In this document: positions 48,933-54,142 of the stretch, one piece after another
How the letters are laid out: each line of letters starts with the position of its first letter
How positions within the stretch are numbered: position 1 is the first letter of the stretch
Sequence record: MN850636.1
Direction: 5' to 3' (one strand)
DNA: 64,000 nucleotides
Source of the DNA: Escherichia phage dune
Translations under genes and position numbers: made by a program
Notes under the pieces: generated by a model
The model's database searches: none
Told to the model about the DNA's origin: nothing
Seen by the model: only the letters and a program-made list of their open reading frames with translations

Positions 48933-49062
48933 TATGTTTTCTCCAAATAATTAACCATGTTTCTCCTTAAAAAAGACGGCACAGAGACCGTCAAGGAGAA
49001 ACCACAATGTACGTCAGAGACATACTGTATAAGCCTTCTTATAAAGTATAACTCTGTAAAAA

Positions 49063-49154: not shown

Positions 49155-49230
49155 TGGAGAATCCGAAGGGACTCGAACCCTTATAAACCTGTTTTGCAGA
49201 CAGGCACATATCCATTTCTGTCACGGATTC
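49155..49230 (-). tRNA. tRNA-Cys (anticodon GCA)
   Basis: Hand-folded cloverleaf: 7-bp acceptor, T-arm aaggg-TTCGAGT-ccctt, anticodon loop cuGCAaa, CCA encoded. Confidence 0.75.
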
Positions 49231-49234
49231 AAAT

Positions 49235-49327
49235 TGGAGGAAGATACCAGACTTGAACTGGTACACCGATTTCTCAGCTACTGGCAGTTTAGCAAACTGC
49301 TCCCTTACCTTTTAGGGTTAATCTTCC
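49235..49327 (-). tRNA. tRNA-Ser (anticodon GCT), long variable arm
   Basis: 93 nt, 7-bp acceptor, anticodon loop uuGCUaa. Confidence 0.7.
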
Positions 49328-49328
49328 A

Positions 49329-50063
49329 TTATTTCTGTAATGCGCTCTTCATTTCTGGTGTTGCAATAGTGTCAATCACACCAGTTTTACAAGCATCGTC
49401 AAACCAGTCTGGTAAGATACCTGCTAAGAACCCATTGATATTCGTTTTAAGGTACTCTGCAATAAGGGCAGCTTCTTCTTCAATCATCTGCACAACTTCA
49501 TCTGCATAAGCTGTAATCTTTGAAATACCTTCATTAATCTTACTGACAGCTTGGTTAGCTAAATCAGAAACAGTATCAAGACCCTTATCAATAGCATCTT
49601 GTAAGTCACTTAACACACCATTAACACTATCTAGTGTACTGTTCATCATGTCAATAGCTTTTTGACCATACTCTGTAGCAACACCCATGATACCACTGAA
49701 TGGTGTACAACCAACTTGTTCTCCTGCTGCACCCATAACATTGGAATACCCCTTTGCTACCTGCATACGTGATGAAAACTCATCAATAGATTTTTGACCG
49801 TAGTCTGTCAGAGTTTTAGTAGTTGCTGTAGTGCTTGTAAGGCTTGTTGTAAAGCTGTTTAGAAGGACTGTTGTAAGTCCAGCAGCAACAAGTTTCTCCT
49901 TCATTGTAGGGTCTGTTACAGAACTAATAGAGCTTACAAGTGATGTAGAAGCAGCTACGGTTCCACCGAGAACTGCTGCACCAGTAATAAGCGGGTTAGA
50001 GAACCCTTTACCAGTTTTTAAGAGATTAAAAATCTCCTTACCTTGTTCTGTCATCTCTTTCAT
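49329..50063 (-). CDS. Hypothetical protein (~244 aa) embedded in tRNA array
   Basis: ORF track; ATG 50063 after AAAGGTG RBS avoids overlap with tRNA-Phe. Confidence 0.5.
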   Translation of the reverse strand: MKEMTEQGKEIFNLLKTGKGFSNPLITGAAVLGGTVAASTSLVSSISSVTDPTMKEKLVAAGLTTVLLNSFTTSLTSTTATTKTLTDYGQKSIDEFSSRMQVAKGYSNVMGAAGEQVGCTPFSGIMGVATEYGQKAIDMMNSTLDSVNGVLSDLQDAIDKGLDTVSDLANQAVSKINEGISKITAYADEVVQMIEEEAALIAEYLKTNINGFLAGILPDWFDDACKTGVIDTIATPEMKSALQK

Positions 50064-50079
50064 TAAGCACCTTTGAAAT

Positions 50080-50156
50080 TGGTAGCCCAGTGGGATTTGA
50101 ACCCTCTTCTCATGTTTTTCAGACACGCGCTTTAACCATATAAGCTACTTGGACTA
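50080..50156 (-). tRNA. tRNA-Phe (anticodon GAA)
   Basis: Anticodon loop cuGAAaa; acceptor with one G-U. Confidence 0.6.
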
Positions 50157-50161
50157 TAAAT

Positions 50162-50237
50162 TGGGGTGACCTACGGGAGTCGAACCCGTATAGACCATGT
50201 TCACAGCATGGGTCATTACCATTTATGATAAGGCCAC
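50162..50237 (-). tRNA. tRNA-His (anticodon GTG)
   Basis: Anticodon loop cuGUGaa; perfect anticodon stem. Confidence 0.7.
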
Positions 50238-50267
50238 ATTTAAGGACTCTCGTAAGAACCCTTAGAA

Positions 50268-50344
50268 GTGGCAGCGGCATAAGGATTTGAACCTTAATCG
50301 GACAGCTTCAGAGACTGTTGCATTGCCAGTTATGCTATACCGCT
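50268..50344 (-). tRNA. tRNA-Gln (anticodon CTG)
   Basis: Anticodon loop cuCUGaa. Confidence 0.65.
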
Positions 50345-50349
50345 AAATT

Positions 50350-50429
50350 TGGTACTCCATATCGGATTCGAACCGATACATAACACAGATTTTAAGTCTG
50401 GCCTCTCTGCCAATTGGAGTAATGGAGCA
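50350..50429 (-). tRNA. tRNA with Leu anticodon TAA, short (~7 nt) variable loop
   Basis: Acceptor and T-arm good; anticodon loop cuUAAaa with 4-bp stem; 80 nt. Confidence 0.5.
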
Positions 50430-50430
50430 T

Positions 50431-50506
50431 TGGCGGGGGATGTTGGAATTGAACCAACTTCTTCGATTTCAAAGACCGAGGTTTTAACCTTGTAAACTAA
50501 TCCCCT
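50431..50506 (-). tRNA. tRNA-Gln (anticodon TTG)
   Basis: Anticodon loop cuUUGaa; D-stem guuu/aaac. Confidence 0.7.
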
Positions 50507-50514
50507 TTAAATCT

Positions 50515-51072
50515 TTACTTTCTCAGTGGATGAATAAAGAATGCCAACATAACTCTTTCCCTTGAGAATGCTCTTTCTTCTGGGACAACACTTTTAAGTT
50601 TCCATCCAACATAAATTCTCCAGTAAAACTGTTTACCAAAGACTTTAATTGACGGAATAAAAGCGAATAATCCCCAAGCATTGTTGTTCCACATTAGGAG
50701 ATAACCTGTCTGATTATCTTCAGGGTCAGAACTTACGTTGATATTACCTTTCCACTTAGTAACATCTTTTACATCTCTTCCTAATACATGGTAAGAGAAG
50801 TTATAAGCTTTGTTTCTCCAGAGCCATCCGACTCTCTGCATGTAGACACCCAGCTTACCAATCTTTCTAATCTTAGCCCATCTTTTAACGTGGCCTTCAT
50901 CACCATCAATTGGGTTGTCATAGGTCTCCATCCATCTGAATCCAAAAGGTAGATGTCCTTTCTTCTCACTGTAGAATGGAACTACGAAAGGTGCTAAGAT
51001 GACTGCTAGGGTTGCTGCAAATGGTTCTAGTAAAGCTAAGAAAATCCATGAAGCGTACTTCAAATATCTCAT
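50515..51072 (-). CDS. Hypothetical membrane protein (185 aa) embedded in tRNA array
   Basis: ORF track; N-terminal hydrophobic helix; flanked by tRNAs. Confidence 0.5.
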   Translation of the reverse strand: MRYLKYASWIFLALLEPFAATLAVILAPFVVPFYSEKKGHLPFGFRWMETYDNPIDGDEGHVKRWAKIRKIGKLGVYMQRVGWLWRNKAYNFSYHVLGRDVKDVTKWKGNINVSSDPEDNQTGYLLMWNNNAWGLFAFIPSIKVFGKQFYWRIYVGWKLKSVVPEERAFSRERVMLAFFIHPLRK

Positions 51073-51081
51073 TAAATAGCC

Positions 51082-51159
51082 TCTTTAAATTGGTGTTCCA
51101 AGACGGATTCGAACCGTCACTAATACAAGGTTTGAGCTTGCATCCTCTGCCAATTGGGA
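51082..51159 (-). tRNA. tRNA with Leu anticodon CAA, short variable loop
   Basis: Perfect acceptor, T-arm gacgg-TTCGAAT-ccgtc, anticodon loop cuCAAac, A73; 78 nt. Confidence 0.55.
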
Positions 51160-51161
51160 TA

Positions 51162-51235
51162 CTGGAACATGGTACTCACTAAAGGACTTGAACCTTTTTC
51201 TTCATCTTGTAAGGGTGGTGTTTTACCATATAAAC
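51162..51235 (-). tRNA. tRNA, probably Val (anticodon TAC); weak anticodon stem
   Basis: Acceptor, D- and T-arms fold; loop cuUACaa. Confidence 0.45.
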
Positions 51236-51244
51236 TAAGCGAGT

Positions 51245-51300
51245 GTGAAAGAGGTCTGAAGTTGTGCCGCTAACTCAACTCCGTGGAATTTGTTACGGTC
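51245..51300 (-). repeat. Member of GGTCTTC-motif structured repeat family (CTGAAG...CTTCAG stem)
   Basis: Shares ACGGTCTTCAG 3' motif with 53148-53812 copies. Confidence 0.4.
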
Positions 51301-51339
51301 TTCAGTTGACACCAGCGGTCTTTCACTTGACCTCTGAAT

Positions 51340-51415
51340 TGGTGCTCCCACAAGGATTCGAACCCTGATAAGTTGCTTACAAGGCAACCGTAATAGCCAA
51401 TTATACGATAGGAGC
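51340..51415 (-). tRNA. tRNA-Thr (anticodon TGT)
   Basis: Anticodon loop cuUGUaa, perfect anticodon stem. Confidence 0.7.
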
Positions 51416-51422
51416 ATTAATT

Positions 51423-51497
51423 TGGAGCATCCAGAGGGAATCGAACCCTCAACCTCAGTTTGGAAGACTGTAATTTTCCCGTTTAAACTATGGATGC
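51423..51497 (-). tRNA. tRNA-Gly (anticodon TCC)
   Basis: Anticodon loop cuUCCaa; perfect acceptor and T-arm. Confidence 0.7.
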
Positions 51498-51503
51498 ACT
51501 AAT

Positions 51504-51578
51504 TGGTGGAGTCACTGAGAATTGAACTCAGTTCCCAAGTTTGCAAAACTCGAATTTTAACCATATAAACTATGACCC
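51504..51578 (-). tRNA. tRNA-Ala (anticodon TGC)
   Basis: Anticodon loop uuUGCaa; G3:U70 pair in acceptor stem (alanine identity element). Confidence 0.8.
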
Positions 51579-51584
51579 CATTTT

Positions 51585-51660
51585 TGGTACAGGTGGAGGG
51601 AATTGAACCCATCGTCTTACTGATTAAGAGTCAGCCGCATAACCATTTTGCTACACCTGC
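51585..51660 (-). tRNA. tRNA-Lys (anticodon CTT)
   Basis: Anticodon loop cuCUUaa; paralog of 52809-52884. Confidence 0.6.
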
Positions 51661-51667
51661 ATTAATT

Positions 51668-51745
51668 TGGTAGGAGACAAGGGATTCGAACCCTCAAACA
51701 CCAACTTCTAAGGATGGTAGGTTTACCAATTACCGTCAATCTCCC
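51668..51745 (-). tRNA. tRNA with Leu anticodon TAG, short variable loop
   Basis: Anticodon loop cuUAGaa; acceptor 7 bp incl. 2 G-U; A73. Confidence 0.5.
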
Positions 51746-52001
51746 ATTAAATCTTTTTAGAGAACTTCTAAGAACCTGAGCAACAAGGTTCCACAACAAG
51801 CGACTAATAACCTTAGAAGCCCTCTAAAAAGACCTAAATAGGTCTTTGCATAGTCTTGTTTAATCCGGTGACTAGAACCTTTGGAGAGCTTGATATTATC
51901 TCTTCTCCGTGACACCTACTAGGTGCTTTGACAGTGTACGACAATACACGAGGGATAAACCGACAATGCGAACAAGCATGGACGGAGTAAATCTTATTAG
52001 G

Positions 52002-52089
52002 CGGTAAGTAAAGGAGTCGAACCCTCACCGTATCTCTACAGTGGCAACAGTTTTCAAGACTGTTTGGCTGCCATTAGCCGCTACCTACC
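52002..52089 (-). tRNA. tRNA-Ser (anticodon TGA), long variable arm
   Basis: 88 nt; perfect anticodon stem acagu/acugu, loop cuUGAaa. Confidence 0.7.
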
Positions 52090-52102
52090 CCTAATAAGAC
52101 TT

Positions 52103-52185
52103 TGGCATGGGACGGAGGAGTTGAACCCCTTTGAAACGGTTTTGGAGGCCGTTGCTCATGCCTTAGAGTCTTAACATCGTCCCAT
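52103..52185 (-). tRNA. tRNA-like, possibly Trp (anticodon CCA), enlarged D region
   Basis: Perfect 7-bp acceptor, T-arm, loop cuCCAaa; atypical 83 nt. Confidence 0.45.
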
Positions 52186-52327
52186 ATTATAATTCGAAGC
52201 TTACCCTGTTATCTCAACACTGTCAAGCTTCTTCTCAGATTATTTACATGTTCTGGAAAACATGAGATACAGACCACCTCCCTACAGGAAGACCCGCTAA
52301 GGCCGTCTAAGTAATCTGCTAACTATT

Positions 52328-52403
52328 TGGTACACCCTACAGGATTCGAACCTGTAACTAACGATTTAGAAGACCGTTGCTCTATCCAATTGAACTAAGG
52401 GTG
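52328..52403 (-). tRNA. tRNA-Arg (anticodon TCT)
   Basis: Anticodon loop cuUCUaa; perfect T-arm. Confidence 0.7.
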
Positions 52404-52650
52404 CATTATCTTTAAAGACTCTCTTAGAAAGCCCTTAAAGATGCCCACCTTATTAATCATACCGTGGGCGAGTACGCCAAATTCTTTGATGAGGGATTGG
52501 AAGACCTCACTGGTGTTTAGCCTATCAAGCTACTGCCAGAAAAACATTGTCGTTTGCATTTATTTTAAATTTGCAAAATAGACGCTACGCAACGAAAACT
52601 AAGGTTACTATAAAGTAGTCACATCTCAATGTCAACAACTTTATTGAAAT

Positions 52651-52726
52651 TGGTACTGGTAGGTGGAATCGAACCACCGATGTTCCCTTATCAGGGGAGT
52701 GTTATAACCTTCTTAACTATACCAGC
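52651..52726 (-). tRNA. tRNA-Ile (anticodon GAT)
   Basis: Anticodon loop cuGAUaa. Confidence 0.65.
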
Positions 52727-52727
52727 T

Positions 52728-52804
52728 TGGAGGTTCAGATGGGAATCGAACCCACATTCATAGGGCTTATGAGACCCTTGCATTACCTTATCTGCGACTG
52801 AACC
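52728..52804 (-). tRNA. tRNA-Met (anticodon CAT)
   Basis: Anticodon loop cuCAUaa; perfect acceptor. Confidence 0.65.
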
Positions 52805-52808
52805 ATAT

Positions 52809-52884
52809 TGGTAGAAGTGGAGGGATTCGAACCCATCGCCTGTCAGATTAAAAGTCTGCCGCATCACCATTCTGCTACACTTCC
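52809..52884 (-). tRNA. tRNA-Lys (anticodon TTT)
   Basis: Anticodon loop cuUUUaa. Confidence 0.6.
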
Positions 52885-52892
52885 ATTAAATT

Positions 52893-53020
52893 ATCTTTGT
52901 AGATAAGCTACCCAGACTTGCTTAAGGTCTGTAGCGATGTGCCTTTTTTGGGTTTAAATCTAGAATTTACCCATTCACCCTTTGTGGTCGCATACTCACA
53001 AGTAAGCTTAATAACTTATC
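52893..53020. repeat. Structured tRNA-free element bounded by perfect 13-bp inverted repeat CTTTGTAGATAAG / CTTATCTACAAAG
   Basis: Inverted repeat at 52895-52907 and 53006-53018 enclosing CAGAC/GTCTG hairpin. Confidence 0.5.
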
Positions 53021-53085
53021 TACAAAGGTAATTACCAGACCGTTGTTTATCATCTTAAGTGCTACCATTACACCAACTCGACATC

Positions 53086-53160
53086 TGCCGAGTGAAGGAA
53101 TCGAACCTTCGCCTTTTCTTTACCAGAGAAATAGATTGTTTAAGTTTTGCTGTAAACGGC
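53086..53160 (-). pseudogene. Degenerate tRNA-like gene (Thr-like, anticodon GGT) with weak acceptor stem
   Basis: Perfect T-arm (gaagg-TTCGATT-ccttc) and anticodon arm (uuucu-cuGGUaa-agaaa) but only 5/7 acceptor pairs and poor D-arm. Confidence 0.4.
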
Positions 53161-53169
53161 CTTCTGTAA

Positions 53170-53250
53170 ATTTGTTGAGCCAGACCAAGTTTTAAATTTT
53201 CAAAATTAAATTGGCTTGAAAATATCATACGTTCTTGCTGAATTTGGTCT
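53170..53250 (-). ncRNA. Structured repeat element copy 1 (AGACCAA...TTGGTCT stem; conserved TTGCTGAAtttGGTCTTCTG)
   Basis: 7-bp terminal stem; shared 30-nt motif with copies at 53584 and 53738. Confidence 0.45.
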
Positions 53251-53321
53251 TCTGCTCCTTTAAAGAATACTCGTAAGAACTCTTTAAGGGAGGGGCTAAA
53301 TAGCCCTCTCAAAATTGGCGG

Positions 53322-53398
53322 CTACGATGAGACTTGAACTCACATCATCTCCCGTGACAGGGGAGTATTTTCTCCAGTTAAACTACATAGCCTTTATT
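53322..53398 (-). tRNA. tRNA-Asp (anticodon GTC)
   Basis: Perfect anticodon stem cuccc/gggag, loop cuGUCac. Confidence 0.7.
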
Positions 53399-53403
53399 GG
53401 TGT

Positions 53404-53491
53404 GCCGTGTAGGAGTCGAACCTACCGAGTCTCAATGACAAGGGATTTACAGTCCCCACCGCTACCATCTACGGGATAACGACACATTTAA
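53404..53491 (-). tRNA. tRNA-Tyr (anticodon GTA), long variable arm
   Basis: 88 nt; loop cuGUAaa; perfect T-arm. Confidence 0.65.
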
Positions 53492-53499
53492 TTTGGCGG

Positions 53500-53576
53500 T
53501 TAGTCAGGGATTCGAACCCTGTGCCATTCGCTTAACAGGCGACCGCACATACCTTATGTGCTTCCTAACCTTAATA
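53500..53576 (-). tRNA. tRNA-Asn (anticodon GTT)
   Basis: Anticodon loop cuGUUaa; perfect T-arm caggg/ccctg. Confidence 0.65.
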
Positions 53577-53583
53577 CATTGCC

Positions 53584-53646
53584 AGACCGTGTTTTTTCTT
53601 TTATCCGCAAAAAAGTATTTTGTTGCTGAATACGGTCTTCTGCAAA
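53584..53646 (-). ncRNA. Structured repeat element copy 2 (AGACCGT...ACGGTCT stem)
   Basis: Stem carries compensatory AA/TT -> GT/AC change relative to copies 1 and 3. Confidence 0.45.
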
Positions 53647-53648
53647 AT

Positions 53649-53725
53649 TGGAGGCGGGTGCAGGAGTCGAACCTGCCGATACCATGCTAATGAGACATGT
53701 GAGACGCCCTTTCTCTATACCCGCA
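53649..53725 (-). tRNA. tRNA with anticodon CAT (second Met-type; initiator or Ile2 possible)
   Basis: Loop cuCAUua; U1:C72 mismatch at top of acceptor stem. Confidence 0.55.
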
Positions 53726-53737
53726 ATTCTTAATGAC

Positions 53738-53812
53738 CAGACCAAATCTCTTCTTTGTCCGATTTACCTTCAGATGAATAAGATTAAGTTTGCTGTAATT
53801 GGTCTTCTGTCA
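53738..53812 (-). ncRNA. Structured repeat element copy 3 (AGACCAA...TTGGTCT stem)
   Basis: 7-bp terminal stem, conserved TTGCTGTAATTGGTCTTCTG. Confidence 0.45.
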
Positions 53813-53819
53813 AAACTGG

Positions 53820-53897
53820 CGTTCCAGAAGGGATTTGAACCCTCAGATATCCACTTTGAAAGAGTGGTGACTATACCATTTTGTCTACTGGAACATT
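53820..53897 (-). tRNA. tRNA-Glu (anticodon TTC)
   Basis: Perfect acceptor and anticodon stem ccacu/agugg, loop cuUUCaa. Confidence 0.7.
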
Positions 53898-53904
53898 AAT
53901 TTGG

Positions 53905-53981
53905 TCTCTGTTGGAGGACTTGAACCTCCGGCCTTACCGCCCCAAACGGAACGCTCTACCAAGCTGAGCTAAACAGAGATA
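53905..53981 (-). tRNA. tRNA-Pro (anticodon TGG)
   Basis: Perfect acceptor, canonical D-arm GCUCAGCUUGGUAGAGC, loop uuUGGgg. Confidence 0.75.
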
Positions 53982-54142
53982 AACTTTTCAAACTCTATGT
54001 AACCACTTTAACATTATTTTTTAGTGGTTGTCAAGAACTTTTTTAAAATATTTTTCAGTATCTTAGAAAAGCTCTCATTTCGTTTCTATGTAGAACATAT
54101 TAAAGGGTATTAAACACATTGTCAATACCCTTTTAAAACTTT

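Follow-up and report, generated by a model that had tools for sequence, protein, structure and literature searches.

Three tRNA-Leu genes with short variable loops in Escherichia phage dune, probably charged by the host leucyl-tRNA synthetase

Known type-I tRNA-Leu and the three phage genes

According to a 2023 review, leucine tRNA (tRNA-Leu) carries a long variable arm everywhere except in animal mitochondria. In bacteria, the type-I (short variable loop) tRNA-Leu(CAA) of Streptomyces coelicolor is known from experiments to be charged with leucine by its own leucyl-tRNA synthetase (LeuRS) (Fan et al., 2019, PMC6614811), a Streptomyces exception that has been described as rare, and a short-loop tRNA-Leu(UAG) has been mentioned in passing in a mycobacterial tRNA cluster (PMC6582537). 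Here, we analyzed a stretch of 64,000 nucleotides from Escherichia phage dune (MN850636.1; the window hereafter), in which three tRNA genes with the leucine anticodons UAA, CAA and UAG have short variable loops. Type-I tRNA-Leu as such is already known from mitochondria and one Streptomyces study, and the three genes are already annotated as tRNA-Leu in hundreds of phage records, where their class (type I) is left unannotated; our full-text literature searches found no description of coliphage tRNA-Leu as type I, of its charging or of the spread of the class. On the basis of the results below, we consider it likely that the three genes encode functional type-I tRNA-Leu that are charged by the host LeuRS and decode UUA/UUG and CUN codons.

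The S. coelicolor tRNA-Leu(CAA) and the solitary UAA and CAA genes of actinobacteria have an NCAGU-type variable loop of 5 nt, a D arm resembling CCCAAUUGGCAGAGG, A73 and the C13·A22 non-pair, the last of which is shared by the UAA and CAA species of the window. However, the actinobacterial genes are chromosomal and solitary, whereas the UAA and CAA genes of the window have variable loops of 7 and 6 nt, respectively, and lie in a phage tRNA cluster. The actinobacterial type-I tRNA-Leu also has a partner LeuRS with a leucine-specific domain suited to type I and, in the Streptomyces genes retrieved, the D loop (AAUUGGCAGCA) is one nucleotide longer than that of E. coli and of the phage. Animal mitochondrial tRNA-Leu resembles the phage tRNAs in its leucine anticodons, short variable loop and identity elements A73 and A14 (PMC9976931), but it is structurally degenerate and served by a dedicated mitochondrial LeuRS, whereas a canonical elbow (G18G19, UUCGAAU) is retained in the phage tRNAs. 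The phage tRNAs also resemble natural versions of the arm-less tRNA-Leu constructs reported in 2002, which were laboratory RNAs assayed in vitro; as far as the summary in PMC9976931 goes, recognition of such constructs by LeuRS came to depend on A73 and the tertiary pairs that join the D loop to the T loop.

tRNA genes were called with ARAGORN and checked against the Rfam covariance model RF00005 (gathering score 29 bits). All three tRNA-Leu (Table 1) aligned to the model as full-length cloverleaves (model positions 1–71) and passed the tRNA threshold. Both direct reading of the sequence and the ARAGORN cloverleaves gave variable loops of GUUAUGU (UAA, 7 nt), AUUAGU (CAA, 6 nt) and UGUUU (UAG, 5 nt), and none of the three has the stem-loop of more than 10 nt that defines the variable arm of class II tRNA-Leu. 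Short loops on three tRNAs with leucine anticodons, together with A73 in each, were what the first-pass annotation of this DNA had reported, and both statements were borne out. It had also named beforehand a covariance-model fold as the test that could overturn them, and this fold, once run, contained neither a long arm nor a different anticodon register. A concealed arm or another register is thus ruled out, as ARAGORN and the covariance model both give a class-I fold. With regard to position, only the UAG gene had been placed correctly: the CAA gene, put at 51082–51159, is shifted by 9 nt (51091–51168), the end of the UAA gene was off by 1 nt and the minus strand had been left unstated.

All three tRNAs have A73, an encoded CCA, a 7-bp acceptor stem, a 5-bp T stem and the T loop UUCGAAU. 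Their anticodon loops are 7 nt long (CUUAAAA, CUCAAAC and CUUAGAA in the UAA, CAA and UAG species, respectively), with U33 and A37 in all; U33 and a purine at position 37 indicate the canonical anticodon register. The UAA tRNA has G1·U72 and a D arm of the form CUC-C/AAUUGGCAG/A-GAG, that is, a 3-bp stem plus C13·A22, and the corresponding arm of the CAA tRNA is UCC-C/AAUUGGCAG/A-GGA. In the UAG tRNA, positions 30 and 40 are mismatched (U30·U40) and the D arm is irregular. Its loop contains one additional U, and the arm can be drawn either with a 10-nt loop or, as ARAGORN and Infernal prefer, with the stem shifted to GGU/ACC and a three-nucleotide connector. Read together with the following A, the D loops are AAUUGGCAG-A in the UAA and CAA species and (U)AAUUGGUAA-A in the UAG species.

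When the phage tRNAs were aligned with leuZ (UAA), leuX (CAA) and leuW (UAG) of E. coli K-12, the sole large gap (8–10 nt) fell at the variable stem-loop and the D arm was conserved. The E. coli tRNAs, which are 85–87 nt long with variable stem-loops of 13–15 nt as against 5–7 nt in the phage, agree with the phage tRNAs in their anticodons, A73, U8, A14A15, G18G19, U48, an AAU(U/C)GGNAG D loop and a D stem of 3 bp that has a purine or C13·A22 non-pair. G1·U72 is common to the UAA species of both, and the UAG species differ at position 37 (A37 in the phage, G37 in leuW). The identity elements of E. coli LeuRS comprise A73, A14 (with U8), A15-U48, G18G19 with A20a, and the pairs G18:U55, G19:C56 and U54:A58, whereas the long arm and the anticodon are dispensable and arm-less constructs stay active (PMC9976931). 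By sequence, this full set is present in all three phage tRNAs, the extra D-loop nucleotide making the numbering of the UAG species ambiguous.

To test the isotype independently of the anticodon, we defined a signature consisting of a 9-nt AAYYGGNAN loop plus N13·A22 and scored it in every ARAGORN-called tRNA of all fetched loci. It was found in 296 of 475 Leu tRNAs versus 4 of 1671 non-Leu tRNAs. The UAA and CAA tRNAs carry it in full, with a 9-nt AAUUGGNAN D loop containing G18G19 and a 3-bp D stem followed by the N13·A22 non-pair; the UAG tRNA has a leucine anticodon, A73 and G13·A22, with a D loop of 10 nt rather than the 9-nt AAYYGGNAN. A crude nearest-neighbour comparison of whole tRNA bodies (anticodon masked, variable region removed) was less specific, as the top matches of the UAA and CAA species included Glu, Lys and Asn tRNAs through chance similarity of acceptor stems, and only the UAG species pointed clearly to long-arm Leu tRNAs. 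Alanine identity is unlikely because G3·U70, the determinant of alanyl-tRNA synthetase (AlaRS), is absent (the 3:70 pairs are U:A, U:A and G:C), and according to established identity rules the remaining isotypes with A73 are recognized through anticodons that are missing from the three tRNAs. Serine identity, which rests on the long arm (PMC9976931) together with G73, does not fit tRNAs with short loops and A73. The first-pass annotation had left two alternatives, namely atypical class-I-like Leu tRNAs or an identity other than the anticodon implies. The former is supported by the D-arm signature, A73 and U48, all independent of the anticodon, whereas the latter is disfavoured by the lack of G3:U70, of a long arm and of G73.

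Conservation and occurrence of short-arm tRNA-Leu

The window belongs to the genus Felixounavirus (Ounavirinae). Its tRNA region matched 365 phage records and is 96–98% identical to Felixounavirus genomes, with Escherichia phage fjerdesal as the top match (98.3%). For the UAA tRNA, 215 records of phages of Escherichia, Salmonella, Shigella and Citrobacter showed 100% identity; phiSUSP1 is among them, although the surrounding 1.4 kb is only 91.5% identical there. An identity of at least 99% was observed for the CAA tRNA in 159 phage records and for the UAG allele of the window in 70, whereas the UAG alleles of FelixO1 and VpaE1 are 88–90% identical, with changes in the anticodon stem that are fully compensated (UCUCG/CGAGA versus CCAUC/GUUGG). 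The identity of the UAA tRNA despite the divergence of phiSUSP1, together with the compensated stem of FelixO1, suggests that the three tRNA-Leu are under purifying selection. Searching each of them with BLAST against 5,426 complete E. coli genomes revealed no similar short tRNA-Leu, and a host origin is thereby ruled out.

The slot beside tRNA-Lys(CUU) holds three forms of tRNA-Leu(UAG) across close Felixounaviruses (window, 51668–51745; fjerdesal locus L001, 4254–4330; loci L220–L223): the window allele, which has a T5-like body, the FelixO1/VpaE1 allele and, in fjerdesal (98% identical overall), an unrelated tRNA-Leu(UAG) of the C13·A22 type. Such variation looks like cassette replacement. 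In addition, the tRNA-Leu(UAA) and tRNA-Leu(UAG) of Felixounavirus recur with 100% identity in record GU169904, labelled Staphylococcus phage SA1, which suggests a mislabelled or mixed assembly.

Outside this genus, two short Leu tRNAs were found in the fetched loci of T5_ev219 (77 nt each) and of Seunavirus SPLA5a (Vequintavirinae; 77 and 78 nt), and three in that of the Erwinia Kolesnikvirus Fifi318 (77–78 nt). In the loci examined, T5-like, Felix-O1-like, rV5-like and Erwinia phages had only short-arm Leu tRNAs, and T4 has a classical 87-nt long-arm tRNA-Leu. The second short tRNA-Leu of T5_ev219 (UAA, 77 nt; L002, 13664–13740) is an ARAGORN call that is absent from the feature table of the record.

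We then scanned IMG/VR with a short-arm pattern (TTGG, 12–14 nt, YTHAR, 14–19 nt, GGTTCRANTCC), which matched at least 120 loci. When the scan was open to both arm lengths, the spacing was bimodal (14–19 nt with a mode of 15, versus 20–28 nt with a mode of 23), and 25 of 127 matches (∼20%) had short arms; such fractions cover pattern-fitting tRNA-Leu only, and IMG/VR proviruses with flanking host tRNAs inflate the long class. Short arms were commoner inside multi-tRNA clusters (20/63) than outside them (5/64; Fisher odds ratio 5.5, p = 7e-4).

The matches listed contained 138 distinct viral short tRNA-Leu. Their variable loops were mostly of 5 nt (116/138), less often of 6 nt (10/138) or 7 nt (6/138), with a range of 5–9 nt, and none was shorter than five nucleotides, the smallest workable variable loop (PMC6614811). 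The three window tRNAs, each with a leucine anticodon and a 5–7 nt loop ending in U48, lie within this range. Features that are independent of the search pattern were almost invariant: A73 was present in 137 of the 138 sequences, U48 in 133, U8 in 129 and N13·A22 in 125. Over 20 stem pairs, 95.3% of the combinations were canonical versus 56.7 ± 0.7% with shuffled partners, and most stem positions showed 4–6 pair types. In the viral loci that hold short Leu tRNAs, the arm was long in 68 of 69 Ser tRNAs and in 30 of 34 Tyr tRNAs.

Position 37 deserves a separate remark. A37, as in the window UAG species, was present in 46 of 68 CUN-reading short-arm tRNA-Leu (viral loci L005–L219), and G37 in 52 of 76 long-arm ones. 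In bacterial CUN-reading tRNA-Leu, G37 is methylated to m1G37 by TrmD; this TrmD target is thus absent from the many short CUN-reading species that have A37.

In bacteria, where one genome per species was scanned by pattern matching followed by ARAGORN and the results refer to the matches listed, at least 161 short tRNA-Leu were identified, either solitary or in arrays. At least 77 were solitary chromosomal genes with no tRNA neighbour within 2 kb, mostly from Actinomycetota by record titles. In Mycobacterium, Nocardia, Gordonia, Rhodococcus, Arthrobacter and Rothia, the anticodon was mostly UAA, and in Bifidobacterium and Streptomyces it was CAA. The array genes, with 9–26 tRNA neighbours, came from Cyanobacteria, Planctomycetota, Acidobacteriota and Myxococcota, and no enterobacterial genome with a short tRNA-Leu was among the matches listed. 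Arm-less tRNA-Leu is thus frequent in viral metagenomes and tRNA arrays, and a standard chromosomal gene in many Actinomycetota. The first-pass statement that bacterial and most phage tRNA-Leu belong to class II was overstated, considering the short arms of T5-like, rV5-like and Erwinia phages, of about one-fifth of the viral sample and of many Actinomycetota.

Among the matches listed, the C13·A22 non-pair occurred in 59 of 138 viral short, 74 of 77 solitary bacterial short and 43 of 75 array tRNA-Leu, compared with 3 of 164 viral long-arm ones, and it was accompanied by NNAGU-type or NUGUU-type variable loops. Judging from these features, the UAA and CAA tRNAs of the window can be assigned to the C13·A22 lineage, shared with the chromosomal type-I tRNA-Leu of actinobacteria and the tRNA-Leu(CAA) of S. 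coelicolor. The UAG tRNA belongs to a second, T5-type lineage characterized by G13·A22 or A13·A22 and RUUUU loops. The T5-type tRNA-Leu(UAG) of Tequintavirus, BF23 and Seunavirus is ∼84% identical to the window UAG species and shares with it the 5-nt RUUUU loop, G13·A22, U30·U40 and an identical T arm, whereas the window and FelixO1 alleles differ from it by the extra U in the D loop, an 11:24 mismatch and another acceptor stem. U30·U40 was found in 3 of the 138 short viral tRNA-Leu and is conserved between the window UAG gene and its T5-like (L002, 9005–9081) and Seunavirus (L003, 6010–6086) counterparts, and may therefore have been retained instead of reflecting damage. Nearest neighbours were of the same class for 72 of 99 short and 106 of 128 long sequences, that is, the classes are largely but not fully coherent. 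A single origin of the short class was not supported by these figures and the presence of at least two lineages, the sequences being too short for a reliable tree.

Probable charging by the host LeuRS and other explanations

Since LeuRS reads neither the arm nor the anticodon and the identity elements are retained, the host enzyme would be expected to leucylate the three phage tRNAs through their acceptor end and elbow. Once charged, they would help to decode UUR and CUN codons at a late stage of infection. In the 45 open reading frames (ORFs) of at least 150 aa in the window, leucine is encoded by CUU (29%), UUA (25%), CUG (15%), UUG (13%), CUA (12%) and CUC (5.5%). In E. coli, roughly 50% of leucine codons are CUG, ∼13% UUA and ∼4% CUA; relative to E. 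coli usage, UUA, CUU and CUA are over-used in this phage genome of 39% G+C. The arm could have been lost from Leu tRNAs alone and retained in those for Ser and Tyr, since it is required for Ser identity and probably also for that of Tyr. The tRNA-Ser(GCU) of the same cluster, whose long arm is kept, is an internal control for such retention.

Several observations weigh against this reading. Fan et al. (2019) found that the type-I tRNA-Leu(CAA) of S. coelicolor was not charged by E. coli LeuRS (EcLeuRS); the enzyme was described as charging type II only, and charging of type I needed a special leucine-specific domain (PMC6614811). The longer D loop of the Streptomyces tRNA may explain this failure. 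The three phage genes thus provide a natural test of whether type-I tRNA-Leu is charged in vivo by an enterobacterial LeuRS, which has been doubted from the in vitro Streptomyces result. Our full-text literature searches found no aminoacylation data for Felixounavirus or T5 tRNA-Leu; a leucine-accepting tRNA of T5 was reportedly detected biochemically around 1970–1980. In the UAG tRNA, the D arm is irregular and U30·U40 mismatched, and a T5-like homolog is annotated as 'tRNA-Pseudo-TAG' in Yersinia phage phiR2-01 (NC_019919.2). This label may reflect pipelines that penalize arm-less Leu tRNAs, and annotators should be aware that such genes may receive pseudogene or isotype-mismatch flags. The 6-nt (CAA) and 7-nt (UAA) variable loops are also uncommon within the short class, as the counts above indicate. 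Finally, the minimum free energy (MFE) fold is a cloverleaf only for the CAA tRNA, and for the UAA and UAG tRNAs the cloverleaf sits 3.4–4.3 kcal/mol above the minimum (weak z-scores of −1.7, −2.2 and −0.8 for the three). As 7 of the 25 cluster tRNAs, non-Leu ones among them, show the same behavior, the weak folds were not counted as evidence against functional tRNAs.

Among the other explanations, the one that survives best, although we regard it as rather unlikely, is that loss of the arm is adaptive. An arm-less tRNA-Leu would escape a nuclease or toxin that attacks class II tRNA-Leu via the exposed variable arm, the attacker being either part of a host defence or a host shut-off factor encoded by a phage, and the phage would keep leucine decoding while host tRNA-Leu is inactivated. 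The short arm would then be a selected, widespread counter-measure in phages and mobile tRNA arrays, with an enterobacterial LeuRS that needs no arm. This is compatible with normal leucine decoding and differs only in why the arm is short. It is consistent with the enrichment of short arms in multi-tRNA clusters, which could, however, also arise if mobile tRNA sets share their ancestry. For other isotypes, tRNA arrays and phage tRNAs have been proposed or shown to counter defences (PMC12803027; PMC11555353), and the human antiviral nuclease SLFN11 prefers type II tRNA-Leu, with cleavage lowered by deletion of the arm (PMC11615386). However, no bacterial nuclease specific for the arm of tRNA-Leu was identified in this analysis, and Actinobacteria have the same architecture in ordinary chromosomal housekeeping genes. 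T4 infection is said to cleave E. coli tRNA-Leu1 within its extra arm (an observation attributed to Yudelevich, 1971), but T4 itself carries a long-arm tRNA-Leu. Neutral streamlining is the alternative to the adaptive explanation: the arm is dispensable for bacterial LeuRS, and its deletion might be tolerated in fast-evolving mobile tRNA sets. The phage genes also raise the question of why cellular tRNA-Leu retain a long arm, and they offer compact Leu-tRNA scaffolds for engineering.

It is less probable still that the tRNAs are poorly charged by enterobacterial LeuRS and have a non-decoding role, such as a decoy or sponge for tRNA-binding host factors, a regulator or a polycistronic processing signal. 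The failure of EcLeuRS on the Streptomyces type-I tRNA-Leu and the non-cloverleaf MFE folds of the UAA and UAG tRNAs could be taken in this sense. On the other hand, A73, U48, A14A15 and G18G19, which matter to LeuRS and not to a generic decoy, are kept over 138 diverse sequences, the anticodons are limited to leucine codons that fit the codon bias of the phage, and the encoded CCA and intact anticodon loops indicate decoding.

There is only a slight chance that any of the genes (UAG would be the most plausible candidate) is a pseudogene in decay that gene finders still recognize. The UAG gene does have the lowest Rfam score (40 bits), the 11:24 mismatch or shifted D stem, U30·U40 and a homolog labelled as pseudo in phiR2-01; nevertheless, its allele is maintained nearly unchanged in the 70 records mentioned above, U30·U40 is not sporadic but conserved among T5-like and Seunavirus homologs, the FelixO1 allele has compensatory stem changes, and the invariant tRNA positions and CCA are intact. 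Least probable of all, and very improbable in our view, is that the three tRNAs carry another amino acid and recode leucine codons: the class-I shape with A73 does resemble many other isotypes and Leu did not stand out in the crude whole-body comparison of the UAA and CAA species, but the 3:70 pairs offer no AlaRS determinant, seryl-tRNA synthetase needs a long arm (PMC9976931), the anticodons read by other A73 isotypes are absent and the D arm bears the signature specific to Leu. The preferred reading is still that of functional type-I tRNA-Leu charged by the host LeuRS.

The tRNA cluster and its neighborhood

The three tRNA-Leu genes are part of a cluster of 25 tRNA genes, in which the Ser and Tyr tRNAs keep long variable arms (Table 1). 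Neighboring tRNAs of the tRNA-Leu genes are separated by 1–7 nt, which is consistent with co-transcription. Promoter-like sites at 54125–54097 and 54034–54005 and a terminator-like site at 48992–48975 are compatible with an operon, such sites being no more numerous than expected by chance.

Table 1 Positions of the tRNA-Leu genes, the tRNA cluster and its long-arm tRNAs in the window
Feature	Position	Strand	Remarks
tRNA-Leu(UAA)	50350–50428	minus	79 nt including CCA; ARAGORN; Rfam 47.5 bits, local E 6.8e-10
tRNA-Leu(CAA)	51091–51168	minus	78 nt including CCA; ARAGORN; Rfam 44.0 bits, local E 6e-09
tRNA-Leu(UAG)	51668–51745	minus	78 nt including CCA; ARAGORN; Rfam 40.0 bits, local E 8.3e-08
tRNA cluster	49155–53978	minus	25 genes including the three tRNA-Leu; ARAGORN
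tRNA-Ser(GCU)	49235–49327	minus	93 nt, long variable arm kept; ARAGORN
tRNA-Ser(UGA)	52000–52089	minus	90 nt, long variable arm kept; ARAGORN
tRNA-Tyr(GUA)	53398–53485	minus	88 nt, long variable arm kept; ARAGORN

Two sub-threshold matches were observed in spacers of the cluster on the minus strand, one at 53093–53143 (26.8 bits, tRNA model positions 7–64) with a T-arm-like GGTTCGATTCC, and the other at 52109–52183 (23 bits to tRNA-Sec). Both may be remnants of tRNA genes. The cluster also contains two protein genes on the minus strand. The first (50515–51072, 185 aa) belongs to phrog_2143 (labelled unknown function) and is annotated as 'holin' in some relatives; its DNA is 65–72% similar to that of hypothetical genes in T4-like phages of Escherichia, Klebsiella and Enterobacter. 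The second (49329–50126, 265 aa), a member of phrog_2114, matches a GTP-binding-domain family more weakly and overlaps tRNA-Phe in its longest ORF. In phage fjerdesal, a tRNA-Arg(ACG) (L001, 3594–3668) lies between the 185-aa ORF and tRNA-Leu(CAA); it is absent from the corresponding position of the window (51073–51090), and thus tRNA content varies even between near-identical phages.

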